From: Sulfurimonadaceae bacterium
GTDB taxonomy: Bacteria; Campylobacterota; Campylobacteria; Campylobacterales; Sulfurimonadaceae
Assembly: GCA_041562555.1 (NCBI GenBank)
Contig: JBFEXS010000011.1
Span: 1 to 34,267, forward strand
DNA: 34,267 bases
Direction of reading: 5' to 3'
Under the pieces are notes generated by a model. It ran no database searches. It was given only the letters and a program-made list of their open reading frames with translations, and was not told the DNA's origin. Shown one piece after another: positions 770 to 17,690 of this stretch (position 1 is the first letter of the stretch; each line of letters begins with the position of its first letter). Both the position numbers and the translations under genes were made by a program.

Positions 770-2133
770 GATTTGAATTAAAGAAGATCCTCAAAGAGGA
801 CAGACTCTTCTCTTTATTGAAGATGTACTCCTATTCGGGAATGCTGAGTGCAGGACCCTGGGTGATTTCGATCATCGCAATTTTGTTCGTCGGTTTTATC
901 AATATCGCTTCTGAACAGGGAGGACACGGGACTACCGCTTCATTCCAGATCGTTATCACCTATGCGATCGCCTTAGCTTCGAGTTTAGTGATCACGGGGT
1001 TTATACAGCTGCCTTTTACCCGTTATATCGCCGATCTTATTTTTGCAGGAAGAGAAGATGAGGTTCTATCGTCGTACCTCTCAACCCTGTTTGTCTCATG
1101 GTTGGTCGGGTTTGTGTTAGGTGCTCCTTTGGCCTTTGTTGTATTCAGTGATCAAAGTCTGTTGTTTGTCGTCAGTATCATCGGCACATTTTTGGTCCTG
1201 TGCGGTGTATGGATATCAAATATTTTGGCGATAAGTCTCAAGTATTATAAGAGTGTTTTATTGGCATATGCCATTGCATACGGATCGATCGTATTCGCCT
1301 CGTATATGTTTGCCAATTCATTAGAAACGCTCGTAATTATTTTTTTCCTGGGTAATGCATTGCTATTGGTTGTCTTAATGACGCTGATCATCAAAAGTTA
1401 CAGTGCATCTTATCTGATAAACTTCGGGTTCTTCAGGGATAAGAACTTTTATTGGTCTTTGGCGCTTGCGGGTCTTTTCTATAATCTAGGGGCCTGGATC
1501 GACAAATTTATATTCTGGTATCATCCTTCAACGGGTACCAATATCATCGGAGGTTTGAATGCTTCGGTGGTATATGATATGCCGATCTTTATCGCGTACC
1601 TGTCCATTATACCGGGAATGGCGATCTTCTTTTTTCGTCTTGAATCAGACTTCGCCGATCAGAACGACCTCTTCTTCAATGCGGTAAGAGATGGTTCGAC
1701 TTTGGAGATGATCGAACGGTATCGAGACGGGATGGTAGATATCATACGTCACTCTATTCGTGAGATCATGGTTGTGCAGGGGATCATCAACATACTGCTT
1801 TTTCTGGGTGCATCAAAACTGTTTGCACTGTTAAACATTCCGCAACTCTATTTGGGGCTTTTTTATATCTTGACGATCGGTGCACAGCTGCAGCTTGGGT
1901 TCATGTCCGTCCTTGCCTATCTGTACTATTTAGATAGACGGGTGGTGGCGATGTGGCTGAGTATCGCTTTTTTTGTGCTAAACCTTGTCTTGACCTTCGC
2001 CTCTATATATCTGGGACCTGCAAGTTTCGGATATGGATATGCGGTATCACTCTTGATTGTCTTTGTTGCCAGTTTGATCGTGCTTAGACGTGAGATGAAA
2101 GGATTGGTGTATGAGACCTTTATGCTTCAGTAG
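757..2133 (+). CDS. pelG: Pel polysaccharide inner-membrane transporter PelG (MOP/MATE-like)
   Basis: Characteristic N-terminus MAGIGFELKK...YSGMLSAGPWVISI and FYNLGAWIDKFIFW; about 12 hydrophobic segments; directly follows pelF. Confidence 0.95.
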   Translation: MAGIGFELKKILKEDRLFSLLKMYSYSGMLSAGPWVISIIAILFVGFINIASEQGGHGTTASFQIVITYAIALASSLVITGFIQLPFTRYIADLIFAGREDEVLSSYLSTLFVSWLVGFVLGAPLAFVVFSDQSLLFVVSIIGTFLVLCGVWISNILAISLKYYKSVLLAYAIAYGSIVFASYMFANSLETLVIIFFLGNALLLVVLMTLIIKSYSASYLINFGFFRDKNFYWSLALAGLFYNLGAWIDKFIFWYHPSTGTNIIGGLNASVVYDMPIFIAYLSIIPGMAIFFFRLESDFADQNDLFFNAVRDGSTLEMIERYRDGMVDIIRHSIREIMVVQGIINILLFLGASKLFALLNIPQLYLGLFYILTIGAQLQLGFMSVLAYLYYLDRRVVAMWLSIAFFVLNLVLTFASIYLGPASFGYGYAVSLLIVFVASLIVLRREMKGLVYETFMLQ

Positions 2134-4855
2134 AGTCTTTATCTTTCTGTCTTTATTGCTTGTGCAATTACATGCGGCTCATACCGAAAAATCGGCTGCG
2201 CTCTATTATGGGGATGATATCTCATACAGTAATCTGGGAATACATGACTATATTATCGTCGAGAGTGATAATATCTCTTCCTATACCCATGGATTCAAGA
2301 CCTATAAGGACAAGATCTATGCCTATGTCAGTATAGGTGAAGCATCGGAGTATCGCAAGCATTTCGATGGACTCAAAGCAGAGTGGAAGCTTTCTCAGAA
2401 CAAGGCATGGAAATCGACTGTTCTAGATGTCTCAAACGATGCGTATCATGAGTATATGTATGAACAGGTCATTCAACCGCTTGTGAATAAGGGATATAAA
2501 AACTTTTTCTTTGATACGCTTGATTCCTATCAGCTTGCGGCAAAGAATGAAGAACAGCGTCAGGAGTTTGAAAAAGGTCTGATACGTTTTATTGTTAAGT
2601 TCAAGCGGCGGTTTAGCAATACGAAATTGATCGTCAATCGTGGTTTTGAGATTTTAGATCAGATACATATGCATATTGACGGCTTACTTGTCGAGTCCCT
2701 ATTCTATGGTTTGTCTCTTCCCGACCTGGCCTATAAAAAGGTCAGTGAACAAGATAGGCAATGGCTTTTGTCACAGATACAAAAAGCGCAAAAATATGGC
2801 TTGGATGTTATCAGTGTCGAATATATCAGCCTAAAAGAGAAAGCGAAGATACGCACGACAATAGAGCAGTTGAAAAACCTGGGAGTGATCCCTTACGTCT
2901 CCAACAAGGAGCTGACACGTTATGGACAGAGCTCAAAAGAGCCGATCAAACGTGAAGTCCTTGTCTTATACAGTGCCACTTCAACCAAGCAATACTCAAA
3001 TGCACACCGTTTGCTCTCTTTGCCTTTGGAACATCTGGGGTATATTCCTGTTGTAAAAGCTATATCAGGGGAATTCCCAAACATGGAAGAGATGAGTCGT
3101 TATAAGGGAGTGGTCGTTTGGAATGAAGCACCGTTTGATGCGACGGATGCCTATGAAACATGGATCAAGTCTTTAGTGGATGCAAAGATAAAAGTCCTTT
3201 TTTTAGATGGGTTTGGCGTCTCAGATGACACGTCCATATGTGAACTCTTAGGGATTAAAAAGCAAACGAACAGAGCAGGGCTCTTTGAGAAGGTCCAGAT
3301 AGGGCACAAGGCGGATATCTTTGACTATGAGACACCTCTTGGGGTGGAGTATTTTGAAACCTTGTATCGCCTTAAAGAAGGAGAAACACTCTTAAGTCAA
3401 GTGAATGTTTACGGACAGGAAAACACACTTGTCGCTACTGCTCCTTGGGGTGGATATGCCTTGAATGGTACTGTGAGTAAAGAGTTTGGTGTAGATGCTT
3501 TATGGATATTGAACCCTTTTGACTTTTTTCCAAAGGCACTGGATCTGGCACCGATTCCTGTACCTGATCCGACCACTGAAAACGGCAGACGTCTGCTTTT
3601 TTCCCATATAGACGGGGATGCGGCAATGAACAGAGTAGAGTGGAATCCAAGGTTATACAGTATTGAAGTCATGTATGAACATATTCTGAAAAAGTATACA
3701 ATCCCGCATGGTGTATCTATTGTTGAAGCGGAGATATCGGCTGAAGGACTTTACCCAAAAGACGCAGCCAAACTTCAGAAGGCTGCGCGAAACATCTATG
3801 CACTTGAGCACGTAGAGGCAGCAAGCCATACCTATACCCACCCATTTGAATGGGAACGCGTCAAAGAGGGAAAACTTGATCCACAGTACAGATTGGGTGT
3901 GAAGGAATACGACTTCTCTATCGACAGAGAGATAAGTGGCTCTTTGGAGTATATCAATTCCCGTCTTCTCCCCGCAGGAAAAAAAGCGGCAAAGACAGTA
4001 TACTGGACAGGTGATTGTGTACCTCCGGAAGAGGTCTTGGCATATACGTACAAACATGGGTTGCTCAATATTAACGGCGGAAATACACTGATTACCAATG
4101 ATAAACCCTGGCTCTCTCGTATCGCCCCTTACAGTTTGAAGCGGGGTGAATATAGACAGGTCTATACCGGAGCGGAAAATGAGAACGTATATACGAACAT
4201 GTGGCATGGTCCCTTCTGGGGATATAAAAAGGTGATACAGACCTTTAAACGGACCGAGTCTCCCAGACGTTTAAAACCTATTGACATCTATTACCATTTT
4301 TATGCAGCTTCCAAAACGGCTTCCTTAAAAGCTCTGGATGAGGTCTACACATGGGCACTTTCTCAAGAGGTTATGCCGATATACCCTTCCGAATATATTC
4401 CCAAGGTCTTGGAGTTTTATGATCTTAGTATGGCAAAGAGCGTTGATGGATGGTATATTGAAGGTATGGATGCACTCAATACGCTTCGCAGTGATACTGC
4501 AGGAACAATGGATAGGCTCAAGCAGAATGCATCTGTCATCGGATACCGGACTCAAGGAGACAGAACCTACATACATGTCAATACACAAAAACAACCGGTC
4601 GTACTCCAAAGCAGAGGCGAAGAGGAGTCAAATCATCTTATCCATACGAATGCCAGGGTGAGCAACTATATGCAGAATGAACAAGGAATCTCGTTTCATC
4701 TGAAGGGGTATGTCGATATTGAGTTAGATTACCATCTCAAAGAGGGGTGTTCGATCAGAAGCAGTATCAAGCCGGGTGATCACCGAATCAGTGGAGCCGA
4801 GCATTCACTGAAATTCCGCGTAAAGGAGAGTGATGTATTCATCCGATGCAGATAA
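2111..4855 (+). CDS. pelA: PelA bifunctional endo-alpha-1,4-galactosaminidase / polysaccharide deacetylase
   Basis: Signal peptide. N-terminal hydrolase motifs AYVSIGE, FFDTLDSY, NRGFE, VESLF. Deacetylase motifs PDPTTENGRRLLFSHIDGD, ASHTYTHPF, WTGDC, NENVYTNMW, RRLKPIDIYYHFY. 914 aa. Confidence 0.95.
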   Translation: MRPLCFSRVFIFLSLLLVQLHAAHTEKSAALYYGDDISYSNLGIHDYIIVESDNISSYTHGFKTYKDKIYAYVSIGEASEYRKHFDGLKAEWKLSQNKAWKSTVLDVSNDAYHEYMYEQVIQPLVNKGYKNFFFDTLDSYQLAAKNEEQRQEFEKGLIRFIVKFKRRFSNTKLIVNRGFEILDQIHMHIDGLLVESLFYGLSLPDLAYKKVSEQDRQWLLSQIQKAQKYGLDVISVEYISLKEKAKIRTTIEQLKNLGVIPYVSNKELTRYGQSSKEPIKREVLVLYSATSTKQYSNAHRLLSLPLEHLGYIPVVKAISGEFPNMEEMSRYKGVVVWNEAPFDATDAYETWIKSLVDAKIKVLFLDGFGVSDDTSICELLGIKKQTNRAGLFEKVQIGHKADIFDYETPLGVEYFETLYRLKEGETLLSQVNVYGQENTLVATAPWGGYALNGTVSKEFGVDALWILNPFDFFPKALDLAPIPVPDPTTENGRRLLFSHIDGDAAMNRVEWNPRLYSIEVMYEHILKKYTIPHGVSIVEAEISAEGLYPKDAAKLQKAARNIYALEHVEAASHTYTHPFEWERVKEGKLDPQYRLGVKEYDFSIDREISGSLEYINSRLLPAGKKAAKTVYWTGDCVPPEEVLAYTYKHGLLNINGGNTLITNDKPWLSRIAPYSLKRGEYRQVYTGAENENVYTNMWHGPFWGYKKVIQTFKRTESPRRLKPIDIYYHFYAASKTASLKALDEVYTWALSQEVMPIYPSEYIPKVLEFYDLSMAKSVDGWYIEGMDALNTLRSDTAGTMDRLKQNASVIGYRTQGDRTYIHVNTQKQPVVLQSRGEEESNHLIHTNARVSNYMQNEQGISFHLKGYVDIELDYHLKEGCSIRSSIKPGDHRISGAEHSLKFRVKESDVFIRCR

Positions 4856-5882
4856 ACGCATAGAAGTCGTCAGTTATCTTGAAGCGGTATTGGTATTTGT
4901 CGTCTTCGCTTTTGTTCTATATGCCCTGTATCCTAAGCAGATGCTTGAGAAACAGGTACTTGCAGAACAGAGCAACTATGACTTGACGGCAATTTATCTT
5001 GAGAACATGCTGCGACTAGAGCCGGAGAATATCGAATTGAGTATGGCTTTAATCGAAGCCAGCCTAAAGAGCGGAAAGTTCGACCTTGCATTAAAAATGA
5101 TCGAGATAGTACAAAACAGGGCTGAGCCGACACTGCAAGAGGAATTGATACGGTATCGTTTTGAGGCATTGAAGGTGAAATACTTTTCCACCAATGAGCT
5201 AGTGCTTCGCAGTGAGATACGTGACGAGATTCACACAGTACTTGATGAGGTGAGCAAGCGCTCAGGATATTATCAAAACAGATTGGAATACTGGTATAAG
5301 GCATCCAGAGAGTTCTCCCTGAACAACTCAGCACTTTTCTTTTTATATAAACTGCTTGAACACGAAGAGAAAGCATTGTGGCTTAAGGAGTGCTTCTACC
5401 TCAGTACGGATTTGAAGAATGAGGTGATGCAAGAGGATTGTTTGACACGTTTAAGAACGGTCGATACCAGTAACTATGATACATGGACGCAACAGGCGTA
5501 TTATATGGCACTGCAAGAGGGAAAAACTGAACGAGCCCTCTCTTTGTTGAAAGACATGGCTTCGCGTTCGCAAAGATGGCGTATTGAACTGGCAAAGTTT
5601 TATGTGGAGCTGCGACGATACAAAGAGGGGTCTGGAGAGTATATGAAGCTTTACAAAAAAGCGCGAAGCGCCCAAGAACATCAAGCATATCTGCGAAAAG
5701 CTTTGGCTGCATTACAATCTGGTGCATTGATGAACGAAGCAGCTGCATTAGCCCGTCAATATGAGGCTCTGTATTACAAGGATAAACAGATGAGTATATT
5801 CTTTATCAAGCTTTACCTTGCAGCCAATAAACTTGATGACGCGAAACGGGTATCCCTTGAGCGATTGAAGTATGTGGACTAG
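4833..5882 (+). CDS. TPR protein corresponding to the N-terminal part of PelB (N-terminal hydrophobic helix + TPRs)
   Basis: AAGGAG upstream of ATG 4833 (GTG 4830 is an alternative start); overlaps the pelA end. Hydrophobic helix followed by DLTAIYLENMLRLEPENIELSMAL, which resembles the PelB N-terminus as I recall it; helical TPR-like repeats. Confidence 0.75.
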   Translation: MYSSDADKRIEVVSYLEAVLVFVVFAFVLYALYPKQMLEKQVLAEQSNYDLTAIYLENMLRLEPENIELSMALIEASLKSGKFDLALKMIEIVQNRAEPTLQEELIRYRFEALKVKYFSTNELVLRSEIRDEIHTVLDEVSKRSGYYQNRLEYWYKASREFSLNNSALFFLYKLLEHEEKALWLKECFYLSTDLKNEVMQEDCLTRLRTVDTSNYDTWTQQAYYMALQEGKTERALSLLKDMASRSQRWRIELAKFYVELRRYKEGSGEYMKLYKKARSAQEHQAYLRKALAALQSGALMNEAAALARQYEALYYKDKQMSIFFIKLYLAANKLDDAKRVSLERLKYVD

Positions 5883-8800
5883 ATGATGCGTTGGTTATGT
5901 ATATCCCTTATCTCTGTTCTTGTTACCCTGTTAGAGGCGGAGGAACTCTGCTATTCTGTACAGCTCAATAGTTTTGTCATCAAAGAGAAAAACCTATATC
6001 GCTTTGAGGGATATCCCCCATCCTGTAAACTGATCGAGGGAGAAAGACTTAATACAGTACGATGCGGATGTTTTGAAAAATATTCACAGGCAAAAGAACA
6101 TCATGCGCTCCTTCGTACCGATTATCCGGATGCCATGATCGTCGAGACCTACCGTTATCGTTTTTCCGATGGGGAAGTTCAGCAGGCAAGCAGTGTGGAT
6201 GAACAGGAACTAAAGTTACTTTTTCAGGTGTTCTCTTTCTCAAGCGATCTTGAAAATGCCTATGCAACGGCGAAAAAAGCGCTTCGGGCTTATCCGCGCT
6301 CTTTGTACTGGCATAACAAAATGGCTGAAGTATCAATGTGGACGGAGAGACGTGAAGAGGCCGTAGAACACATGATGTATGTTTACAAACGTACCCATAG
6401 TAAAGAGCTGGAGAAAAAACTTCTTGAGTATGCTCTTTTAGCCTATCAGTATGAGACGGCAGCAGCTATCATCGAGAAGAAGGTCAAACAAGACCCAAGT
6501 GAGGAAAATGTACAGAAGATGGTCTATATCTTCGATCTGGCGGGAAGACCGGAAGCATCTGCACTTATCTTGGATGAGGTGTATAGACAATTTCCTTCCC
6601 GCACCTATCTTTTAACACAGCAGTTGCAAATCTATTTGAACATGGGAGAGACGGAGTCTGCTTCCGGTGTTGTAAAAAAGATCGAAAAAGTAGGTCTAAA
6701 TGATATGTCTACCGCCTATCTGTTGTCATATTATTATTTTTTGCGTCAAGATGTAGATGCTTCCTATAGAGCACTAAAAGCAGCTGATCTTGAAAAGAGC
6801 AAAGATACGAACACGACACGGTATTATATGCAGTTGAGTGACCTCTCGTGGTACGTGAAGGCATATAAGGAGGGAGCTGAGGCCTCTATACAGGTTGATG
6901 AGGCTGGTGCTGCCCGGTTGGTCGATTATGAGCGTATACTGGCAGTATATAAAAAGAGTGATCCAAGGATGGCGATGAAGGCCGCTCTGGATGCATATCA
7001 GAAGTTTTCTCAGCACTATTTATTCTATACCTATGCGTATTTGGGGATTGAACAAACTGCTTATCATGAGGTCCTTGCCCTATGTGAGAAGATTGAGCAA
7101 GATAGAGAGAACACCTTGGTCGAGGAAGCCTTGTATTGGATGATCAAAGCACAGCTGTATGGATATACAGATCAGACTATAGAGGCACAAGAGGCATTTT
7201 ACAAGGCCCAGATGATATCGCCATCTTCTCAGCAGATCATCGAATCCTATATCTGGTTCCTGATGGATATCAGAGACAGCAGCAGGCTAATAGAGATTTT
7301 GACACAATTGGAAGAAGAAAATGAAATAAACAAGACTCTATGGCTTCCGATGGCTGTTGCTTATTTTTATCTTCAGTATACGGACAGAGCGGAATTTTAT
7401 CTGAGCAAACTCAAGGATGCAGGGGTTCAAAGCCGTCAAATCCACCTGCTTGATGCCTATGTCATGCAGTCTCAAAACAGAGAGGATGCTTTTTACAAGG
7501 TATTGACTAAGCTTGAGACGCAGATGAGGCTTGAATTGAGAGCGGACCCTATGCTGGAACGCTCTTCGGATTTTATGCAGGAATACCTTGGTATTTCGAT
7601 GTTCTTGTCCGGTGCAGATACATTTGCAGCAGAACTTGAGAAAGCGAAAAATATTTTGAGCAAAGAGGCATACGAGGAGCTTTCACTCTCCTTTGCTATG
7701 CGAGAAAATGTGGACGAGCAGGTGCATCGACAGATGACCCGTATGCAAAAGAACGAGCCATGGATCAGATTGAATTATGCGCTGAGCAGTCATGATCTGT
7801 CTGAACAGCAAGAGTTGTTGTATAAATATTATCGAATCCTACCATTGAGTGATACTGTAACGGCAGCGCAAAATACACAACAGGTTTCTTTGGCACAGGA
7901 TATGGTCTTTGAGGGCCTTGCACACAATCGTAAAAATGCATTGACCTATGATCAGATGCGTCAGCTTTATGAAGAATCAGCGGACGTGTTCTCAGTAGAG
8001 ACAGGGGTATTGGACAGGAGTGGTCTGGAACAAGTTTATGCCCAAATAGACAATAGGTATTATATGGCTAAGGGCTATACTCTCGAAGGAGATCTCTTCA
8101 TCGGCAGCAACACTGTCAATGACAGTGCAGTGTTTAAGAGTATACCCTCCACTTCAACGGCACTTTCTTTTGGTCTCACGAAGGATTTTGCACGGGGTGA
8201 TTACACGTTAAGCTTTGGGGTGAAGGATTCCGCAGAAGCCTATTATACACTTGGATTTACGTATAGAACCGCATTGTCACGACGATTGGACATGGAACTT
8301 TCAATCGACAAGGCTGCCAAAGCAGAGGAAAGCGTCTACCTTCTGGTGGGTGGTTATAAGGATCGCATAGCGTTGCAGGCACGTTATGCAATTCTGGGCT
8401 CATCAACTGTCGGATGTTACCTGGAACACGCAGGGTATCGTTCGGATGATGGTACAGACCTTGGCTCCGGATATAGCGGACGGATAGATTACAGCTACTT
8501 ACAACGCTCAGCTTATCCAGATATCAGTGTCACACCTTTTTACACCTTTGGAAAGTATGATGAGACAAGCGGCTCAAAAGGGGTGATAGATGATATGCTT
8601 ACTTTCCCTGATGCGAAGGTTGTCTCTGATGATTTTTGGTATGCAGGGTTTGATCTGAGTTATGGGATGCAAAATCGATATAATTATACACGTGTTTGGC
8701 GTCCCTTTATATCGATAAGCCCCTATTATAACGGACTGGAATCAAAATATAATTTTGGATTCTCCTCCGGAATAGGCGGAGCAGTTTTTGGGCAGGACCA

Positions 8801-8891
8801 CCTTGCCTTTGTGATCGATTACTCCGAGAGTGTGAACGGGACAAGCGATCAGCTTTGGCGAAGCTATTTCAGCTATAAAATTTTGTATTGA
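5883..8891 (+). CDS. pelB: PelB-like outer-membrane export protein (signal peptide + SPOR-like domain + TPRs + C-terminal beta-barrel)
   Basis: Signal peptide MMRWLCISLISVLVTLLEA; TPR-like repeats (LENAYATAKKALRAYPRSLYWHNKMAEVSMW). The C-terminal ~300 aa are Gly/Tyr/Ser-rich amphipathic beta strands ending GGAVFGQDHLAF...SYFSYKILY. Lies in the pel cluster. Confidence 0.82.
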   Translation: MMRWLCISLISVLVTLLEAEELCYSVQLNSFVIKEKNLYRFEGYPPSCKLIEGERLNTVRCGCFEKYSQAKEHHALLRTDYPDAMIVETYRYRFSDGEVQQASSVDEQELKLLFQVFSFSSDLENAYATAKKALRAYPRSLYWHNKMAEVSMWTERREEAVEHMMYVYKRTHSKELEKKLLEYALLAYQYETAAAIIEKKVKQDPSEENVQKMVYIFDLAGRPEASALILDEVYRQFPSRTYLLTQQLQIYLNMGETESASGVVKKIEKVGLNDMSTAYLLSYYYFLRQDVDASYRALKAADLEKSKDTNTTRYYMQLSDLSWYVKAYKEGAEASIQVDEAGAARLVDYERILAVYKKSDPRMAMKAALDAYQKFSQHYLFYTYAYLGIEQTAYHEVLALCEKIEQDRENTLVEEALYWMIKAQLYGYTDQTIEAQEAFYKAQMISPSSQQIIESYIWFLMDIRDSSRLIEILTQLEEENEINKTLWLPMAVAYFYLQYTDRAEFYLSKLKDAGVQSRQIHLLDAYVMQSQNREDAFYKVLTKLETQMRLELRADPMLERSSDFMQEYLGISMFLSGADTFAAELEKAKNILSKEAYEELSLSFAMRENVDEQVHRQMTRMQKNEPWIRLNYALSSHDLSEQQELLYKYYRILPLSDTVTAAQNTQQVSLAQDMVFEGLAHNRKNALTYDQMRQLYEESADVFSVETGVLDRSGLEQVYAQIDNRYYMAKGYTLEGDLFIGSNTVNDSAVFKSIPSTSTALSFGLTKDFARGDYTLSFGVKDSAEAYYTLGFTYRTALSRRLDMELSIDKAAKAEESVYLLVGGYKDRIALQARYAILGSSTVGCYLEHAGYRSDDGTDLGSGYSGRIDYSYLQRSAYPDISVTPFYTFGKYDETSGSKGVIDDMLTFPDAKVVSDDFWYAGFDLSYGMQNRYNYTRVWRPFISISPYYNGLESKYNFGFSSGIGGAVFGQDHLAFVIDYSESVNGTSDQLWRSYFSYKILY

Positions 8892-8902
8892 TTGAGAGAA
8901 AA

Positions 8903-9583
8903 ATGGAACATCTAGACTTATACTCCAAGGTTGAGCATCTTTTGGGAATCGAAGATGCAACAAAATACCTGCATACTATCTATACCGAAGTGCTCTACAA
9001 TTATGAGATCAAGACACTTTTGGATGTCGGATGCGGCAGGGGTGAACTGATGAAGACCTTTGCAAAATTTGACATCGATTGTGAAGGTATAGATCTGAGT
9101 GCGTTGATGGTCGAAAAGGCCAAGGCCAAGGGTTTAAAGGCTGAACACAAGTCCATCTGTGAAGTAGAAGGTTATTATGATGCAGTAGTCGCTGTCTTTG
9201 ATGTCTTGAACTTCGTTTCTCCCGATGCATTGGAAGGTTTTATAGCGTGTGTACACAGGGTCTTGAATGATGACGGGATCTTTGTTTTTGATGTCAATAC
9301 CTTGCATGGCTTTGCCAATGTCGCCGATGGGACGATGAGCCAGGAAGAGGGAGAAAATTTTCTTAGTGTCGATGCGGTGTTTGAAGATAATGAACTGCAT
9401 ACGAAATTTACCTATTTCAGCCAAGAAGGTGCCTTGTATAGAAAAGAACAGGAGACGATAGTCCAGTATTTCCATCCCTTGAAGCTCTTCAAGAAACTGA
9501 AGGATTTCAAGGTCGTACAGAGCGCCTATCTGGACCTGTATGATAAAAAAGACAAGGCGCTGATCGTCTTGAAAAAAGCCTGA
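8903..9583 (+). CDS. Class I SAM-dependent methyltransferase
   Basis: Motif I LLDVGCGRG, GIDLSALMV, motif VFDVLNF. ATG 8903 preferred over TTG 8888. Confidence 0.88.
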   Translation: MEHLDLYSKVEHLLGIEDATKYLHTIYTEVLYNYEIKTLLDVGCGRGELMKTFAKFDIDCEGIDLSALMVEKAKAKGLKAEHKSICEVEGYYDAVVAVFDVLNFVSPDALEGFIACVHRVLNDDGIFVFDVNTLHGFANVADGTMSQEEGENFLSVDAVFEDNELHTKFTYFSQEGALYRKEQETIVQYFHPLKLFKKLKDFKVVQSAYLDLYDKKDKALIVLKKA

Positions 9584-9593
9584 GGAGATAAGT

Positions 9594-10154
9594 ATGCTTG
9601 AAGATAAACAGCGATGGAATGAAAAGTATATGAACAAATGTCCGATGCCCGACTGGCCATCGGAACTGTTAGTCGAGAATATCGGTTTGGCAAAGCCGGG
9701 AAGAGCATTGGATATTGCCTGTGGCACGGGAAGAAACACCCATTTCATGGCGGACAAGGGCTTTGTCGTCGATGCTGTTGACCTTTCGGATTATGCTCTT
9801 TCGCAAGTACGGGATGATACGGCTATCAATAAAATCGATGCAGATTTGGATGATTACTCTTTACCGGAGGACAGCTATGATCTGATCGTAAAGTTCAACT
9901 TCCTGGATCGCAATCTCTTCTCTCAGATTATCAAGGCCTTGAAAAAAGACGGGGTGTTTATCTATGAAACCTTTGTAAAGACGCCAACAGGTGAGGGATA
10001 TCATAATCCGACAAACCCTGATTTTCATCTGGACAGGGATGAAGTGCCCAAAGTCTTTTCCGAGCTTGAACTGATCTTTTATGAAGAGAGGGATACGATT
10101 AATCTGCGGGATGAGAAAGTCAGGGTCGCCTCATACGTCGGCAGAAAGTCCTAG
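9594..10154 (+). CDS. Class I SAM-dependent methyltransferase, TehB (tellurite resistance)-like
   Basis: RWNEKY, GRALDIACGTGRN, AVDLSDYAL, NFLDR, NPDFHL; RBS GAGGAG upstream. Confidence 0.85.
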   Translation: MLEDKQRWNEKYMNKCPMPDWPSELLVENIGLAKPGRALDIACGTGRNTHFMADKGFVVDAVDLSDYALSQVRDDTAINKIDADLDDYSLPEDSYDLIVKFNFLDRNLFSQIIKALKKDGVFIYETFVKTPTGEGYHNPTNPDFHLDRDEVPKVFSELELIFYEERDTINLRDEKVRVASYVGRKS

Positions 10155-10160
10155 CAGTGA

Positions 10161-11519
10161 TCAACGGGTCGAAAAGCTGTATAAAAACTGTAAAAAGAGT
10201 TTCGAAGCATTCTTTTGCGAAATATCGTTCTTTGTGATAAAGTCACCGGCATTCAGATAGGTATAGATTCCCAATAGTTTCAGATCCTTATTCATCGTAT
10301 ACTTCAGAATAAGATCGTATTCGTCCCCAATTTCCTTGTAGCTGTTTCCCGGTTGATTCTTGTATCCGAAGGTATACCATTTGTCGCTTGCTTGGGCTAA
10401 GCTGAAGTGATGGTAGGCCGTCTCAACAAAGAGCTTGGGTATGGGCTTGAATGAGAGTGTTGCCTGATAGTCTTGCATATTTGCCCAGATCATGATGTCC
10501 ATCCGTCCATAATGTAAACCGTCATTCGCACCAAAGGGGGCTGAGAAGGTCTGTTTACGCATATCATTCGGGTTCTCATCCCCTGTTGCATAGATAGAAC
10601 CCAGAGTGAATCTTGTTTGATAACTGTTTTCCCATTGATAGCCCAGTTTAGCGGCATAGGCATAGGCGTCTATATCCAGGCTTCCATATGTCCCCGTGGC
10701 ATCTACCGCGGTCACATCATAGATAACACCTGCCGAGTCATCATAGAGTCGGGCTCCATAGTAATAGGCGTTTTCATCCGGGACCTCTGTGTGGTAGAGG
10801 GTGTTCCTATAGGCCATGAACGGCTCTATGCGAAGTTTTGAACTCTCAAAGTGGCTGTAAAGTCCCACCCCCTGATAGCGGTGTTTTTGAAGGATACTAA
10901 AGTCGTCGGGTTCTTTAATACGTGTCTGTCCATACCAAAGGTCGACAAAGTTTTGCTTCTTTGCATAGGAGAGGTGTGCAGCATCCCAAAGCCACCCCAT
11001 GGTGTTTCCCCACTTGCCCGGTCCAAAGATACGTCTGTCACCGTAACCTAGCTGCTGGCGGCCGATGGTCAGTGTGAGATCCTCTGTTAAGAAACCATCT
11101 TTTTTGATATAGGTCTCAAATAGCTCATGATGATCGTCATAATAGGACATCGTATATTCATCCTGGGTAGACCTGTTTTTTATAAAATCATTCGCATCCA
11201 AAGAAGAGCCCCATGACCTGGAGTCATACATAGAAGCTTTGAAACTCCATAAATCGGATGGAAAATAACTTATCCCTGCAATGATCTGTTGTAGATAAAT
11301 GACATCGTCGGGATCTCCGCTGATCTCTCCTTTTGCATTGATAGCGTCTTCTCCATAGGAGACCTTGTTGATACCATCATAGATGTCAAAGCGACCTCTG
11401 TATTGAGCATTGAAAAAGAGGGATTGTTCATCGGTCAGTTGGACAGGTACAGGAGTTGTAAACTCCTGCTCGGCATATAAAAATACAGAGAAGATAAAAA
11501 GAAGAAAAGACTTCGGCAT
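10161..11519 (-). CDS. Alginate export (AlgE-like) family outer-membrane beta-barrel protein
   Basis: Signal peptide; LTIGRQQLGYGDRRIFG...WDAAHL, YATGDENPND, EIGDEYDL, and terminal amphipathic strand FLQFLYSF. Its start overlaps the upstream gene's stop (TAATG). Confidence 0.8.
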   Translation of the reverse strand: MPKSFLLFIFSVFLYAEQEFTTPVPVQLTDEQSLFFNAQYRGRFDIYDGINKVSYGEDAINAKGEISGDPDDVIYLQQIIAGISYFPSDLWSFKASMYDSRSWGSSLDANDFIKNRSTQDEYTMSYYDDHHELFETYIKKDGFLTEDLTLTIGRQQLGYGDRRIFGPGKWGNTMGWLWDAAHLSYAKKQNFVDLWYGQTRIKEPDDFSILQKHRYQGVGLYSHFESSKLRIEPFMAYRNTLYHTEVPDENAYYYGARLYDDSAGVIYDVTAVDATGTYGSLDIDAYAYAAKLGYQWENSYQTRFTLGSIYATGDENPNDMRKQTFSAPFGANDGLHYGRMDIMIWANMQDYQATLSFKPIPKLFVETAYHHFSLAQASDKWYTFGYKNQPGNSYKEIGDEYDLILKYTMNKDLKLLGIYTYLNAGDFITKNDISQKNASKLFLQFLYSFSTR

Positions 11520-11914
11520 TATTTGCTTAAGTCATCTGCTTTGTGTAATATCTTTAGGAAGAAAGGTGCCGTTTTACCACCGATAAGGGTGTCCGTGCTT
11601 TTTGTTCCGTCACTTTTCAAAAAATGAAAGACGGGAGTGACATCAACCTGAAGTTCCTTAGGTGCGTCATTCGTATGAATGTCTGCGGAAACAGAGATAA
11701 AGTGTGTATTGAGGTAACTAACAACAGCTTCGTCTGTAAAGACGTTCTCTTTCATATATTGGCAAGAGCCGCAACCGGGTTTGTTCATGAAGACCAGCAT
11801 AGGCTTATCTGTTCTTTTCGCTTCTGCAGCTGCTTCTTTGTAGGAGTGGAACCAATTAACGTCGGTGGCATAAAGAGAGATAGTTAACAATGTAAGTAGG
11901 AAAAATTTTAACAC
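11519..11914 (-). CDS. Exported thioredoxin-fold protein, SoxW/DsbJ-like (CGSC)
   Basis: GTG start at 11914 with AAGGAT RBS; signal peptide VLKFFLLTLLTISLYA; WFHSYKEA...KPMLVFMNKPGCGSCQYMKENVF; cis-Pro VTPVFHF. Confidence 0.85.
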   Translation of the reverse strand: MLKFFLLTLLTISLYATDVNWFHSYKEAAAEAKRTDKPMLVFMNKPGCGSCQYMKENVFTDEAVVSYLNTHFISVSADIHTNDAPKELQVDVTPVFHFLKSDGTKSTDTLIGGKTAPFFLKILHKADDLSK

Positions 11915-11960
11915 GGATGTATCCTTTTGATGTGTCTTGAAAGACGGGAAATGGATTGAA

Positions 11961-11969
11961 ATTATAGCA
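11961..11969 (-). promoter_or_regulatory. Extended -10 promoter (TGCTATAAT) for the thioredoxin-porin operon
   Basis: The reverse complement of attatagca is TGnTATAAT, about 47 nt upstream of GTG 11914. Confidence 0.65.
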
Positions 11970-12114
11970 CAGTAATCAACCTGATAAGTGTTTTTGTCTC
12001 CCTGTCTCACAGGAAAAGTATTGATGTCGTAAAGTGCCTTGTGTATTGGTTGGAAGTTTGTGAAAAAAATGATTTTCGTAAAGCGGAATAAAGATAAATT
12101 TAATATTTACATAA

Positions 12115-14519: not shown

Positions 14520-16907
14520 ATGAACTGGCGAACACGAGCAGAGATGAGACTGGAGAAGATGGGTGCAGCCATTGCCGTCCATCCTAAGAAAACGATTTTC
14601 TTTATCCTTACCTTGAGTCTTTTTTTCATTTCCAACCTTCCTAAAATCACTATTGATACCTCGACAGAAGGTTTCTTGCATGAAAACGATCCGGCACTGA
14701 TCCGATATGAGGCATTTAAGGAGCAGTTTGGCCAGGATGAAAAGATCATGGTCGTTGTGCAAACAGATGACCTGTTTAGTTTTGAGACCTTGGATAAACT
14801 CAGACGATTACACAATGAACTTGAAAACAGGGTCCCCCATCTGAATGATATAACGTCTTTGATTAATGCTCGTAATACACGGGGTGAGGGCGACAGGTTG
14901 ATTGTTGAAGACCTTTTTGAGGTATGGCCGGAGGATGAAAAAGCCCTTGATGCTATCAAAGAGACAGCAATAAAAAGTGAGATGTATGAAAACCTTTTGC
15001 TCAGTAAGGATTTAAGACTCACGACGATCATCCTGGAACCAAACGCATATGAAGGTTCAACATCCGATAATGAGCTGGAAGGTTTCTCCGATATTGAAGA
15101 ACCAGTGCAGAATGTGAAATTTTTAAGTGATAAATCAAAATCTCAGATGGTCAGAGAGACGGATGCAATAATCAAAGAATTCAGTTCAGATGAGTTTGAG
15201 GTGTTTATTGCGGGTTCCCTGGCAGTTAACGATTATATCAAGGCCTCCATACAAAAAGATCTGCAAAAGTTTGTTAAATTGGTCCTGTTGATGATGGCAA
15301 TTTTCTTGTTTGTCGTATTCCGCCGTGTATCCGCTGTTATCCTCCCTATGTTCATCGTTGTCATATCTTTGCTGATAACCTTGGGCATAATGGCTTTATG
15401 TGAGATACCCATTACCATTCCTACACAGATTCTTCCCTCTTTTTTGTTAGCTGTCGGGATCGGGGCAACGGTGCATCTTCTGGCGATGTTCTTCAAGCAC
15501 TTTAACCAAAATGGCTCCAAGGATAAAGCAGTTGTGTTTGCCCTAGGGCATTCAGGTCTGGCGATTATCATGACCTCTTTGACAACTGCAGCAGGACTGC
15601 TGTCCTTTGCAAGTGCGGAGATTGCACCTATATCCCAACTAGGGGTTTTTGCTGCTGCAGGTGTCATGATAGCACTTATCAATACCTTAACGCTTTTACC
15701 GGCTGTTTTAGTGATTCTTCCTCTTAAACCTGCTAAGCAAAAGCAGATACAAAAGTCGACAAAGATGGATCAGTTCTTGCGCTCTGTGACGCTGTTCAGC
15801 TTACATCATGCCAAGGGGATCGTCTTTATAGGTTTTATGCTTTTTGTACTCTTTATGTACAGTGCCATAAAGTTAGAGTTTAAGCATGATGCCTTAAGCT
15901 GGCACCCGGATGATTCACCTATCAAGCAGGCGACAGCCAGAGTTGACAAAGGACTGAGAGGATCGGTAACTGTGGAAGTCATTGTTGATACAAAAAAGGA
16001 GAATGGGCTGTATAATGCAGCTCTTTTGCATAAGATTGACAGTGTAAGAAAACAAGCCGAAGAGATAAAGGATGACAACTATTTTGTCGGTAAGGGTTGG
16101 AGCATCGCTGAAGTGCTAAAAGAGATACATAGAGCCTTGCATGGAAACAATCAGGAGTATTACACGGTTACTGATGATGACAGACTCATACCGCAGGAGT
16201 TCCTGCTTTTTGAAAATAGCGGAAGTGATGATTTAGAGGATCTTGTAGATTCCAGTCTGTCCCAAACACGAATAACATTTAAACTTCCGTGGATGGAAGC
16301 AGGGGAGTATACGGAATTAAACAATAAAATCAAGAAAGTAGTTGTTGAAGAGATAGGAAAAGACGCGGAAGTCACTATTACCGGTATGGTTCCTCTTTTT
16401 CAGAGAACACTGGTCGCAGCAATGAGTTCAATGGCTATGAGTTATGTCATCGCGTTTATCATGATCTCGGCGATGATGGTCATACTGCTTGGAAGTTTTA
16501 AAGTGGGGATGGTCAGTATGATCCCAAATGTATTGCCGGTCATCATCACTTTAGGCTTTATGCATATGGCCGAAATGCCGCTTGATATGTTTACGATGCT
16601 GGTAGGGGCCATTATCATTGGACTCTCGGTAGACGACACGGTACATTTCTTTCATAATTTTGCGCGTTACCGTCATCAGGGAAAAAGTGTGGAAGCTTCT
16701 GTCGAAGAGACGATGCTTGGAACGGGACGGGCAATGGTCGCGACAACGATCGTACTTTCACTCGGCTTTTTCGTATACACCTTTGCGACATTAAATAATC
16801 TGATTAATTTCGGTATTTTAACGGGTGGAGCGATTATTGTCGCACTGTTGGCAGATATCCTGCTTGCTCCGGCATTATTAAAACTACTGAGTAAGGAAAG
16901 ACAATGA
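14520..16907 (+). CDS. MMPL / RND-family efflux transporter permease
   Basis: Two repeats of TM + large periplasmic loop + 5 TM; TSLTTAAGLLSF, GLSVDDTVHF, GTGRAMVATT; 795 aa. Confidence 0.92.
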   Translation: MNWRTRAEMRLEKMGAAIAVHPKKTIFFILTLSLFFISNLPKITIDTSTEGFLHENDPALIRYEAFKEQFGQDEKIMVVVQTDDLFSFETLDKLRRLHNELENRVPHLNDITSLINARNTRGEGDRLIVEDLFEVWPEDEKALDAIKETAIKSEMYENLLLSKDLRLTTIILEPNAYEGSTSDNELEGFSDIEEPVQNVKFLSDKSKSQMVRETDAIIKEFSSDEFEVFIAGSLAVNDYIKASIQKDLQKFVKLVLLMMAIFLFVVFRRVSAVILPMFIVVISLLITLGIMALCEIPITIPTQILPSFLLAVGIGATVHLLAMFFKHFNQNGSKDKAVVFALGHSGLAIIMTSLTTAAGLLSFASAEIAPISQLGVFAAAGVMIALINTLTLLPAVLVILPLKPAKQKQIQKSTKMDQFLRSVTLFSLHHAKGIVFIGFMLFVLFMYSAIKLEFKHDALSWHPDDSPIKQATARVDKGLRGSVTVEVIVDTKKENGLYNAALLHKIDSVRKQAEEIKDDNYFVGKGWSIAEVLKEIHRALHGNNQEYYTVTDDDRLIPQEFLLFENSGSDDLEDLVDSSLSQTRITFKLPWMEAGEYTELNNKIKKVVVEEIGKDAEVTITGMVPLFQRTLVAAMSSMAMSYVIAFIMISAMMVILLGSFKVGMVSMIPNVLPVIITLGFMHMAEMPLDMFTMLVGAIIIGLSVDDTVHFFHNFARYRHQGKSVEASVEETMLGTGRAMVATTIVLSLGFFVYTFATLNNLINFGILTGGAIIVALLADILLAPALLKLLSKERQ

Positions 16908-17686
16908 TTATAAAGATTTTATTTATGTTCTCTTTGGCATTGACACCGCTGTTGGGCATTACTGGAGTAGAGATAGCCCAGAAAGTACATGATAGAGACG
17001 AGGGTGACAATCATACTTCAAAAATGAAGATGATACTGGTGGACAAGAACGGAAACAGACGAGTCCGGGAATTAAAGACCTTTGCAAAAGAGAAGGGTGA
17101 AGATACACTGAAATTAATGTTTTTCCTCTCTCCTGCAGATGTAAAAGAGACAGGTTTTTTAACCTATGATTATGAGGACAGTTTAAAAGATGATGATCAA
17201 TGGCTCTATCTGCCCGCGCTTCAGAAAACAAAACGTATTGCTTCCTCGGATAAGAGTTCATCATTTATGGGTTCAGATTTCACTTATTCGGATATGACCT
17301 CACGGAATGTGGAAGATTATGAGTATACGATTATGAAAGAGCCTGAGATTAACGGGCATAAGACCTGGCAGATGTTGGTCGTACCCAAGACACAGAAGAT
17401 AATTGATGAGACAGGCTATACCAAATCCATCGTGTTTATCCGTCAGGATAATTTTGTGATCGTACAGGCACTTCATTATGTAAAAGCCGGAAAAAAGCTC
17501 AAGTATATGAAGGTGCTTGGACTGGAAAAGATTGATGGGATCTGGACGACGACAAAAATACAGATGGTGACCAAAAAAGGTAAAAAGACACTGCATAAAA
17601 CCATTTTGGAATTTACAGACATCAAATATAATCAGGATTTAGATGAATCATTTTTTACAACACGTACGATCGAAGGAGGTCTCTAG
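16904..17686 (+). CDS. Outer-membrane lipoprotein-sorting (LolA-like) periplasmic protein
   Basis: Signal peptide; FLSPADVKETGFL, DDDQWLYLPALQKTKRIASSDKSSSFMGSDFTYSD; ATGA overlap with the MMPL gene. Confidence 0.9.
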   Translation: MIIKILFMFSLALTPLLGITGVEIAQKVHDRDEGDNHTSKMKMILVDKNGNRRVRELKTFAKEKGEDTLKLMFFLSPADVKETGFLTYDYEDSLKDDDQWLYLPALQKTKRIASSDKSSSFMGSDFTYSDMTSRNVEDYEYTIMKEPEINGHKTWQMLVVPKTQKIIDETGYTKSIVFIRQDNFVIVQALHYVKAGKKLKYMKVLGLEKIDGIWTTTKIQMVTKKGKKTLHKTILEFTDIKYNQDLDESFFTTRTIEGGL

Positions 17687-17690
17687 GTAG

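Follow-up and report, generated by a model that had tools for sequence, protein, structure and literature searches.

In the synthase-dependent exporters of Pel, alginate, cellulose and PNAG, a TPR scaffold must thread through the cell wall. In PelB of Pseudomonas aeruginosa (PDB code: 9h80, chain M, 1193 residues), a TPR region is followed by a C-terminal β-barrel, and the parts of the PelB literature consulted describe no wall-binding element on this protein. Literature searches returned no paper that connects PelB of the Pel system with a SPOR domain, the matches listed all using pelB in other senses or contexts; none containing both PelB and Sulfurimonas; and nothing relevant on a SPOR domain, a porin and a tether together. 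Wall-binding modules are described in other envelope proteins. SPOR domains, such as those of FtsN, DamX, DedD, RlpA and B. subtilis CwlC, consist of about 70 residues forming a four-stranded antiparallel sheet with helix α2 on one face. According to PMC6895207, SPOR domains are glycan binders in which a Gln residue and the residue at the +3 position (Q270/A273 in RlpA, Q251/S254 in FtsN and Q351/S354 in DamX) lie at the glycan contact, the Gln recognising the lactyl group that is free in denuded glycan, through contacts with NAM lactyl and NAG. The outer-membrane channel protein PilQ begins with one to three small peptidoglycan-binding AMIN domains, which are proposed to hold the channel beneath the wall and to bring it to division sites (PMC5285504). 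In the OmpA-type wall tethers, a barrel and a domain that binds the wall are connected by a flexible linker.

The stretch of DNA analysed here (the window, 34,267 nucleotides) is an entire contig (C11; JBFEXS010000011.1) of a Sulfurimonadaceae bacterium (GCA_041562555.1) and begins inside pelF. The Pel genes described here lie on the forward strand. The pelF-like glycosyltransferase gene at positions 2–769, whose 5' end is cut by the contig start, gives a Pfam Glycos_transf_1 match (E 5.6e-25) and a DUF3492 tail. It is followed by a full-length pelG at 757–2133 (Pfam PelG, E 6.6e-123) and by a pelA-like gene of 914 codons at 2111–4855, in which residues 56–269 match Glyco_hydro_114 (E 1.5e-16); a gene of matching position and size is present at two related loci, L043 and L045. 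PelB therefore belongs to a Pel operon, as pelF, pelG and the pelA-like gene lie directly upstream of it, and the gene order is kept at both related loci. PelB is not encoded as a single polypeptide running from an inner-membrane anchor to the barrel. Instead, PelB-N (P0156, 350 residues; 4830–5882) is an inner-membrane-anchored TPR half with a hydrophobic helix at about residues 14–34 followed by TPRs, and PelB-C (P0001, 1002 residues; 5883–8891), identified from the ORF translation and Pfam, is the outer-membrane half. Residues 5–343 of PelB-N align with residues 2–307 of a fused PelB of 1213 residues from genome G039 (E 3e-38), and residues 97–1002 of PelB-C align with its residues 311–1213 (E 1e-141), so that the two proteins jointly span the fused PelB. 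On the fused protein, PelB-N reaches residue 307 and PelB-C takes over at residue 311, and this split junction is the exact site of the SPOR-like domain described below. The first-pass annotation of this DNA overlooked both the split and the position of the domain at the junction.

PelB-C is a PelB-like protein by its barrel, its TPR region and its operon context. The PelB C-terminal β-barrel (8061–8858; PF24604, B-barrel_PelB_C) covers residues 727–992 with an E value of 1.2e-39 and a score of 137 bits, the cut-off being 31, and a genome scan places it at C11:8058-8858; residues 736–986 align with residues 913–1174 of P. aeruginosa PelB. The TPR or α-rich periplasmic region, with approximate limits of 6201–8060, contains Pfam TPR_19 (residues 122–162) and TPR_15 (275–535), and residues 122–506 are homologous to residues 302–683 of P. 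aeruginosa PelB. The two systems therefore share homologous TPR and barrel regions as well as the context of pelF, pelG and pelA. They differ in that PelB is here encoded by two genes, with the break near residue 285–300 of the P. aeruginosa protein, and in that PelB-C has its own signal peptide and a SPOR-like domain with no counterpart in P. aeruginosa PelB. Residues 1–19 (5883–5939) read as a predicted Sec signal peptide cleaved after LEA, an assignment made by the cleavage rule and the missing lipobox. The Cys-stapled SPOR-like domain occupies residues 22–94 (5946–6164), delimited by AlphaFold models, structure searches, hhalign and HMM tests and conservation. A short linker (residues 95–106; 6165–6200) connects it to the TPR region; both models drop to a pLDDT under 50 at their end, and homology to a domain-less PelB begins at residue 105.

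The peptide on which the first-pass annotation based its SPOR resemblance, CYSVQLNSF...TVRCGCFEKYSQAKEHHALLRTDYPDAMIV, is indeed residues 23–89 of the ORF translation (5949–6149). Two AlphaFold models of the domain have pLDDT values of 89.0 and 88.5, the sheet and α2 reaching about 90–97, and both have the same topology of β1 (residues 22–31), a β2–β3 hairpin (48–52 and 57–64), α2 (67–77) and β4 (85–90). A search of 48,161 PDB representatives placed SPOR domains at ranks 1 and 3–5. With the first model, CwlC (1x60) scores Z 7.0 with an rmsd of 2.3 over 66 aligned residues, followed by RlpA (6i0n, Z 5.9), DedD (6ztg, Z 5.7) and DamX (2lfv, Z 4.8). With the second model, the Z scores are 6.7 for CwlC, 6.2 and 5.7 for RlpA and 5.8 for DedD, with the next unrelated chain at 4.1, and SPOR entries account for four of its top five Foldseek candidates. 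The top Foldseek match is the CwlC SPOR domain (E 0.026, probability 1.00), Foldseek against the PDB giving nothing at E<=1e-3, and no structural match reaches Z 8, below which a score can reflect a common arrangement. The four strands, α2 and the SPOR neighbours agree with a SPOR fold, whereas of the SPOR helix α1 the first model keeps a single turn and the second nothing. The motifs of SPOR domains are in register with the PelB-C domain, namely YxVQ..S in β1, vRvGpf in β3, the helix and A.I in β4. Compared with canonical SPOR domains, the PelB-C domain falls below every Pfam and NCBIfam threshold, has a degenerate α1, has four conserved Cys residues that flank the β3 Gly and start β1 and β2, and carries an extra conserved TY.YRF tail at residues 89–94 (R93 in 140 and F94 in 150 of 163 copies). 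Its placement also differs, since it is N-terminal, directly after a signal peptide, on outer-membrane barrels, whereas SPOR-FtsN, SPOR-DamX and SPOR-RlpA are C-terminal in their proteins (PMC6895207).

Searches with one or a few sequences did not detect the relationship. The domain of the window has no Pfam match even at E<=10 and hence does not reach the PF05036 gathering score; an alignment with four close homologs gave only chance-level Pfam matches (TSP1, ClpS and TPR_6) and no SPOR; an NCBIfam search of the domain gave nothing relevant; and a four-member profile HMM found only chance matches among PDB sequences (E 0.28–1.3), none of them SPOR. A PF05036 scan of the whole genome identified three other loci, the PelB-C domain not being among them. 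When 163 domain copies were compared with 32 canonical SPOR domains by hhalign, homology was detected over 67 columns with a probability of 85.7%, a P value of 5.4e-6 and a score of 32.0, against 10.95 for the reversed control and 14.7 for the best of 60 column shuffles. In searches of tiny databases, the family HMM scored 26.7 bits on a canonical SPOR domain of locus L019, and the SPOR HMM matched 38 of the 163 copies at E<=1e-3. The window's own domain is one of the most diverged copies, with 9.2 bits and an E value of 0.015 against the SPOR HMM. Of the 30 feature matches in the ESM Atlas, 14 fall in a set whose cluster has PF05036 on 12% of its members. The resemblance noted at first pass is therefore that of a true domain, of the SPOR type by both fold and profile homology, and exceeds chance at the level of the family only. 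Residues 22–94 are homologous to canonical SPOR domains and constitute a diverged member of the superfamily.

In the hhalign register, CYSVQL lies over yyIQVGAF, and Q27-L-N-S30 in β1 (5961–5972) is the counterpart of the glycan-contacting Gln and its +3 position. A β1 Gln and a small +3 residue are kept across the family, Q27 in 120 and S30 in 132 of 163 copies, Q27 being replaced by Glu in 28. Arg60 in β3 (6060–6062), within VRCGCF, which corresponds to the vrvGpf motif, aligns with the canonical Arg/Lys; it is present in 157 copies, and position 49 is Lys or Arg in 94. Q27, S30 and R60 are thus, as judged from the alignment, in register with the Gln, its +3 neighbour and the basic patch of the SPOR domains in PMC6895207, although the PelB-C domain family has one invariant Arg where RlpA uses three.

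The four Cys residues named in the first-pass annotation, at positions 23, 48, 61 and 63, are confirmed by the translation, and they are present in 159, 153, 153 and 160 of the 163 copies, respectively. All four occur together in 152 copies; C48 and C61 are jointly gone in seven, which keep C23 and C63; all four are gone in three; and a single one is gone in one. Since the Cys residues are lost in pairs across the family, Cys23 (5949–5951) is the putative partner of Cys63 (6069–6071), and Cys48 (6024–6026) that of Cys61 (6063–6065). The suggestion of two disulfide pairs agrees with this pattern of loss, and C23–C63 and C48–C61 disulfides are likely. The SPOR domain of FtsN also has a disulfide, which is linked to peptidoglycan binding (PMC6895207). 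Metal binding by the four Cys residues is less likely than disulfide formation because they are lost in pairs and the domain is periplasmic. A lipoprotein anchored through Cys23 was rejected, as position −1 is mostly Thr or Ser (76 and 48 of 163) and position −2 mostly charged (Glu 46, Asp 35, Lys 26), at odds with the lipobox rule.

The domain family comprises at least 155 clusters at 50% identity and is unannotated. In 134 of 139 family proteins the domain begins upstream of residue 30, and 22 of 139 carry two or three tandem copies. Host typing by Pfam, which covered the family proteins of at least 480 residues, 78 of 154 being shorter, identified all 22 proteins of at least 900 residues as PelB-type, none of these having SPOR among its Pfam matches, and assigned Porin_O_P to eight, Alginate_exp to six, OEP to five and DUF1302 to four of the 54 proteins of 480–899 residues. 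The hosts besides PelB therefore include phosphate porins and TolC-like, alginate-export-like and DUF1302 barrels. Among the genomes sampled, the domain is largely limited to one Campylobacterales family, and in the genome of the window, which is 89% complete, PelB is the only carrier. That canonical PelB lacks such a domain, as had been assumed, is borne out by the alignments: P. aeruginosa PelB aligns with PelB-C only from residue 122, the fused relative only from residue 97 and the domain-less PelB only from residue 105. The latter, from a genome of the same genus (G013), is a PelB-C of 936 residues that is 54% identical from residue 105 on, and in a Psychromonas PelB homolog the signal peptide is followed directly by the TPRs. 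Since both proteins lack the domain, it is an accessory of PelB, and since split PelBs exist without it, it is dispensable for the basic machine.

These observations lead us to favour, with reasonable though far from complete confidence, the explanation that a diverged, Cys-stapled SPOR module is a portable N-terminal peptidoglycan anchor for PelB-C and other barrels. In PelB-C, a SPOR variant would have been placed after the signal peptide and ahead of the TPR solenoid. After Sec export, C23–C63 and C48–C61 would staple strands β1, β3 and β2, and the open face of the sheet with Q27, S30, K49 and R60 would bind peptidoglycan glycan strands in a SPOR-like manner. The periplasmic tip of the solenoid would thus be fastened to the sacculus near its meeting point with PelB-N, and in Sulfurimonas and its relatives one to three copies of the module may anchor many outer-membrane barrels. 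Peptidoglycan binding is the best supported of the putative functions. Such an arrangement would resemble the N-terminal AMIN domains of PilQ, which nevertheless belong to a different fold family and sit on a secretin rather than a BAM-type barrel; binding and targeting by AMIN are experimentally shown, whereas those of the PelB-C domain are putative. It would likewise resemble the OmpA-type tethers, although OmpA_C has another fold and is C-terminal, whereas the PelB-C module is N-terminal and Cys-stapled.

Since the same module occurs on porins and on TolC-like, alginate-export-like and DUF1302 barrels, and since a PelB of the same genus lacks it, the module is not Pel-specific, and its role is more probably to tether outer-membrane proteins to the wall in general than to localise Pel, at the septum or elsewhere. 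As the window's own genome has the domain only on PelB, this generality draws on other genomes. The septal targeting proposed at first pass would require the domain to keep specificity for amidase-denuded septal glycan, so that PelB-C is captured at division sites and new poles have the Pel pore already in place for polar secretion. The Gln with which SPOR domains recognise denuded glycan by its free lactyl group (PMC6895207) is conserved and tandem copies occur as in PilQ, but the module is also on porins, TolC-like and other barrels with no obvious need for polarity, the Gln gives way to Glu in the copies counted above, and the congener G013 has the same operon without the domain. We regard this reading as unlikely, and given the broad use of the domain, septal or polar Pel targeting appears less likely than a generic wall tether. 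It is decidedly doubtful, too, that the disulfide-stapled variant is a lineage-wide address tag in Sulfurimonas and its relatives that captures newly exported outer-membrane channels, namely the PelB pore, porins, and TolC-like and alginate-export-like barrels, on amidase-denuded septal peptidoglycan; if so, the division site would be where outer-membrane machines, the Pel exit among them, are put in place, and new poles would inherit them, as happens for pili through the AMIN domains of PilQ.

The SPOR scaffold might instead bind a ligand other than peptidoglycan, either Pel, which is a GalNAc/GalN glycan, or a protein partner, for example the PelB-N C-terminus, in which case it would re-join the two halves. 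The location of the domain exactly at the split junction would fit this, as would the glycan binding of SPOR domains (PMC6895207) and the four Cys residues and TY.YRF tail that the subfamily has beyond canonical SPOR. Neither ligand, however, suits the porin, TolC-like, alginate-export-like and DUF1302 hosts, split PelBs without the domain exist, and the idea is quite improbable. It is more improbable still, to the point of being hard to credit, that the SPOR likeness is a shared ferredoxin/RNP-like arrangement only and that the domain is an unrelated Cys-rich periplasmic module, for example a folding or redox-sensing cap. The domain has no Pfam match and no α1, its best Z scores of 7.0–7.5 are within the range of a common arrangement, and an uncharacterised B. 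pseudomallei protein (6ozd) scores level with SPOR domains; against this stand the profile–profile match in register across the whole domain with clean controls, the score of the family HMM on canonical SPOR, and the SPOR domains among the best neighbours, four of five for each model.

If the wall-tether explanation is correct, the natural split of PelB, with a SPOR-type anchor at its junction, would provide a handle on where the outer- and inner-membrane halves sit with respect to the sacculus. The family also suggests that N-terminal SPOR variants tie many outer-membrane barrels of one Campylobacterales clade to the wall, and would thereby extend the range of envelope staples known so far. 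The loss of Cys residues in pairs gives a testable disulfide map, and natural congeners with and without the domain offer a ready comparison. A search for related loci with the single protein yielded no confirmed relative. A canonical SPOR domain in a frame of 1043 residues in genome G040 was rejected as a bridging architecture, being C-terminal and on an unrelated protein. In genome G054, a canonical PF05036 SPOR domain is located at the N-terminal head of a TolC-like protein.

Upstream of P0001, a PelB-like protein of 1002 residues identified by ORF translation at 5883–8891 on the forward strand, Pfam searches identify genes for a PelF-like glycosyltransferase cut at its 5' end, PelG (E 6.6e-123), a PelA-like protein of 914 residues and a TPR protein of 350 residues, P0156. 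P0001 contains the PelB C-terminal barrel at residues 727–992 (E 1.2e-39) and TPR_15 at residues 275–535 by Pfam, and in the P0156 sequence TPRs follow a hydrophobic helix. Residues 5–343 of P0156 align with residues 2–307 of a single 1213-residue PelB in G039, a genome of another family of the same order (E 3e-38), and residues 97–1002 of P0001 align with residues 311–1213 of the same fused protein (E 1e-141). Since both align with consecutive parts of the fused PelB, P0156 is, as judged from these alignments, the inner-membrane half of a PelB whose outer-membrane half is P0001. PelB is thus split into a transmembrane and TPR gene at 4830–5882 and a gene for a signal peptide, TPRs and a barrel at 5883–8891; the comparison loci in other genomes are L054 (761–4402) and L053 (138–4001). 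The break between the halves is the exact site of the signal peptide and of a Cys-rich domain at residues 22–94.

By the cleavage rule for Sec signal peptides, residues 1–19 of P0001, with LEA at their end, resemble one. Directly behind it, the first-pass annotation had placed a SPOR-like domain at 5949–6149 that carries cysteines at residues 23, 48, 61 and 63, and had proposed that it confines Pel secretion to the septum or pole. Translation confirms that this region is residues 23–89, with the peptide quoted and the four cysteines as described; the interpretation is partly supported. The remark that PelB normally lacks such a domain also holds. A genome of the same genus, G013, has the same two-gene arrangement, and its 936-residue PelB-C, which shares 54% identity with P0001 beginning at residue 105, has just a short linker between its signal peptide and the TPRs. 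A Psychromonas MAG, in which PelB is split likewise, keeps the gene order of the window (pelF, pelG, pelA, a transmembrane TPR gene of 325 residues and a PelB-like gene of 950 residues), and the signal peptide of the latter leads directly into an ELVLLFKVF segment equivalent to the stretch that starts at residue 105 of P0001. Pseudomonas aeruginosa PelB (PDB code: 9h80, chain M) aligns solely with residues 122–506 and 736–986. Because these alignments begin at residue 105 or 122, residues ~20–100 of P0001 have no counterpart in the three PelBs. Of the 61 related genomes scanned, 15 have a match to the domain profile at E ≤ 0.01 (9 of the 16 others in the genus are among them), and the PelB barrel is present in 18. 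Domain and barrel share one frame in nine of these 18, one with a weak domain match (E 0.001) and one with two copies. Contig ends truncate the PelB gene of two others, where the fragment with the domain corresponds to P0001 residues 1–593 or 23–452; the remaining seven have no domain (six PelBs of 927–937 residues and one fused frame of 1218 residues). In the window's own genome, which is 89% complete, the domain occurs on PelB only.

The domain is covered by no Pfam or NCBIfam model, and PF05036, the SPOR model, detects three other loci in this genome (an FtsN-like protein, RlpA and a lipoprotein) but misses the domain of P0001. The resemblance to SPOR stands at the family level and not by direct match. 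When an alignment of 163 copies of the domain was compared by hhalign with 32 canonical SPOR domains, picked up by PF05036 in this genome and elsewhere in its order, the whole domain aligned in register over 67 columns (probability 85.7%, P 5.4e-6, score 32.0), CYSVQL falling on yyIQVGAF and TVRCGCY on KVLVGPY, with the helix and the A.I segments also matching. The reversed SPOR alignment scored 10.95, and the best of 60 column-shuffles 14.7, no shuffle exceeding a probability of 2.1%. In agreement with this, the family HMM gives 26.7 bits on the canonical SPOR domain of L019, and the 32-domain SPOR HMM detects 38 of the 163 copies at E ≤ 1e-3 in a tiny database, in which the copy of P0001 itself gains just 9.2 bits (E 0.015). 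As a lead only, 14 of the 30 matches of an ESM Atlas feature search fall in a set whose cluster has PF05036 on 12% of its members.

Two AlphaFold models, from 4-row and 25-row alignments (mean pLDDT 89.0 and 88.5), both place β1 at residues 22–31, β2 at 48–52, β3 at 57–64, α2 at 67–77 and β4 at 85–90; the β1–β2 segment, in the place of SPOR α1, forms a single helical turn in the 4-row model and coil in the 25-row one. Foldseek against the PDB puts the CwlC SPOR domain on top (E 0.026, probability 1.00) and that of RlpA at rank 24, but finds nothing at E ≤ 0.001. For the first model, the best match by VIA-align among 48,161 representatives is the SPOR domain of CwlC (Z 7.0, rmsd 2.3, 66 aligned), followed by 6ozd (6.9) and the SPOR domains of RlpA (5.9), DedD (5.7) and DamX (4.8), with FtsN at rank 49 (3.3); the second gives 6ozd 7.5, CwlC 6.7, RlpA 6.2 and 5.7, and DedD 5.8 before a gap to 4.1. 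Since a Z below 8 can reflect a common arrangement, as the tool warns, the structural support rests on which chains head the list and on their agreement with the profile result. Residues 82–168 of 6ozd, an exported, uncharacterised Burkholderia pseudomallei protein (BPSS2145), fit the models as well as SPOR domains do (Z 6.9–7.5), and may hold an unrecognised SPOR-like domain.

[quoted passage not shown] In the alignment register, these positions are Gln-27, Ser-30 and Arg-60 of P0001. Among the 163 copies, position 27 is Gln in 120 and Glu in 28, Ser-30 is kept in 132, Arg-60 in 157 and Gly-62 in 154, and position 49 is Lys or Arg in 94. A tail after β4 (6147–6164), Thr-89, Tyr-90, Arg-93 and Phe-94, is conserved in 130, 128, 140 and 150 copies; this TY.YRF motif has no canonical SPOR counterpart and is the family's own extra. 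Cys-23, Cys-48, Cys-61 and Cys-63 are present in 159, 153, 153 and 160 copies. All four occur in 152, Cys-48 and Cys-61 are jointly absent with the other two kept in seven, none is present in three and only Cys-23 is absent in one. Such paired loss is what Cys-23–Cys-63 and Cys-48–Cys-61 disulfides would produce, suggesting that these two bonds form. They would also fit the predicted strand layout, in which β3 lies between β1 and β2 and the neighbouring strands start opposite its end. A disulfide tied to peptidoglycan binding is known in the FtsN SPOR domain (PMC6895207).

A word-indexed search found three close homologs, all PelB-like proteins of ~1000 residues with the four cysteines invariant. 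A profile of these and P0001, run against 1.84 billion representative proteins, matches 155 at E ≤ 0.001, 68 at E ≤ 1e-10 and 4 at E ≤ 1e-30. Local re-search of 150 of the 155 and the four starting proteins gives 163 near full-length copies in 139 proteins (one copy in 117, two in 20, three in 2), the first beginning before residue 30, directly behind the signal peptide, in 134. Relatives with a name comprise Sulfurimonas MAGs along with a single MAG labelled Arcobacter. In a host tally that leaves out 78 proteins shorter than 480 residues, mostly contig fragments, all 22 proteins of at least 900 residues have the PelB barrel and TPR_15, and the 54 of 480–899 residues match Porin_O_P (8), Alginate_exp (6), the TolC-like OEP (5), DUF1302 (4) and OMP_b-brl (1), the remainder having TPRs only, no match or a few odd single Pfam matches. 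On non-PelB barrels the module is often in tandem and often followed by long charged linkers. In a related genome (L042, 644–2371 of G054:C7), a 575-residue protein read from its sequence as TolC-like, of the OEP type, has a canonical SPOR domain (PF05036) immediately behind the signal peptide, so N-terminal SPOR domains on outer-membrane proteins also exist in the ordinary type within the order.

The domain is thus probably a diverged, disulfide-stapled SPOR domain that binds peptidoglycan and serves the outer-membrane proteins of this clade as a portable wall anchor. It would bind glycan strands and pin the periplasmic tip of the PelB outer-membrane half to the sacculus, near its meeting place with the inner-membrane half. 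That the module also sits at the front of porins and of TolC-like, alginate-export-like and DUF1302 barrels, that a TolC-like protein of a related genome carries a canonical SPOR domain N-terminally and that congeners manage without the module all argue for a portable anchor rather than a Pel-specific device. The septal or polar targeting of the first-pass annotation would be a special case of wall anchoring; PilQ's AMIN domains provide a real precedent on an outer-membrane channel (PMC5285504), and we regard such targeting as possible though rather unlikely. Binding of the domain to Pel or to PelB-N appears still more doubtful. That the likeness to SPOR is a chance similarity of fold seems very improbable. 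SPOR domains as a family, PelB, and the tethering of outer-membrane proteins to the wall are known already. No printed account was found of PelB with a SPOR-type domain, papers pairing the two terms never concerning the Pel protein at the level of listings, and none was found joining PelB and Sulfurimonas. Nor was this Cys-stapled N-terminal SPOR subfamily found in print, nor its use on many barrels, a search for SPOR domains with porins and tethers yielding nothing relevant. PelB TPRs are described as guiding Pel and binding PelA, and the accessible text of that study mentions no wall-binding element (PMC12022489).

Elsewhere in the window, the GH114 segment at residues 56–269 is the sole Pfam match of the PelA-like protein (2111–4855), and the deacetylase part expected of PelA has no Pfam match there. 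Directly 3' of pelB-C lie two SAM-dependent methyltransferase genes at 8888–9583 and 9594–10154 (Methyltransf_25/11, the second TehB-like); ORFs of the same size (227 and 185 residues) follow pelB in L043, a locus of another genome, the likeness being one of size alone. The region 10161–12010 on the reverse strand encodes an Alginate_exp-type outer-membrane barrel of 452 residues, preceded by a thioredoxin-like (Thioredoxin_7/DsbH-like) gene; the barrel lacks the Cys-SPOR module, in contrast to the six family members elsewhere that combine the two. A cluster at 14520–19184 encodes an MMPL/RND-type transporter, a LolA-like protein and a DUF1302 barrel, the last also without the module that four DUF1302 proteins elsewhere carry.
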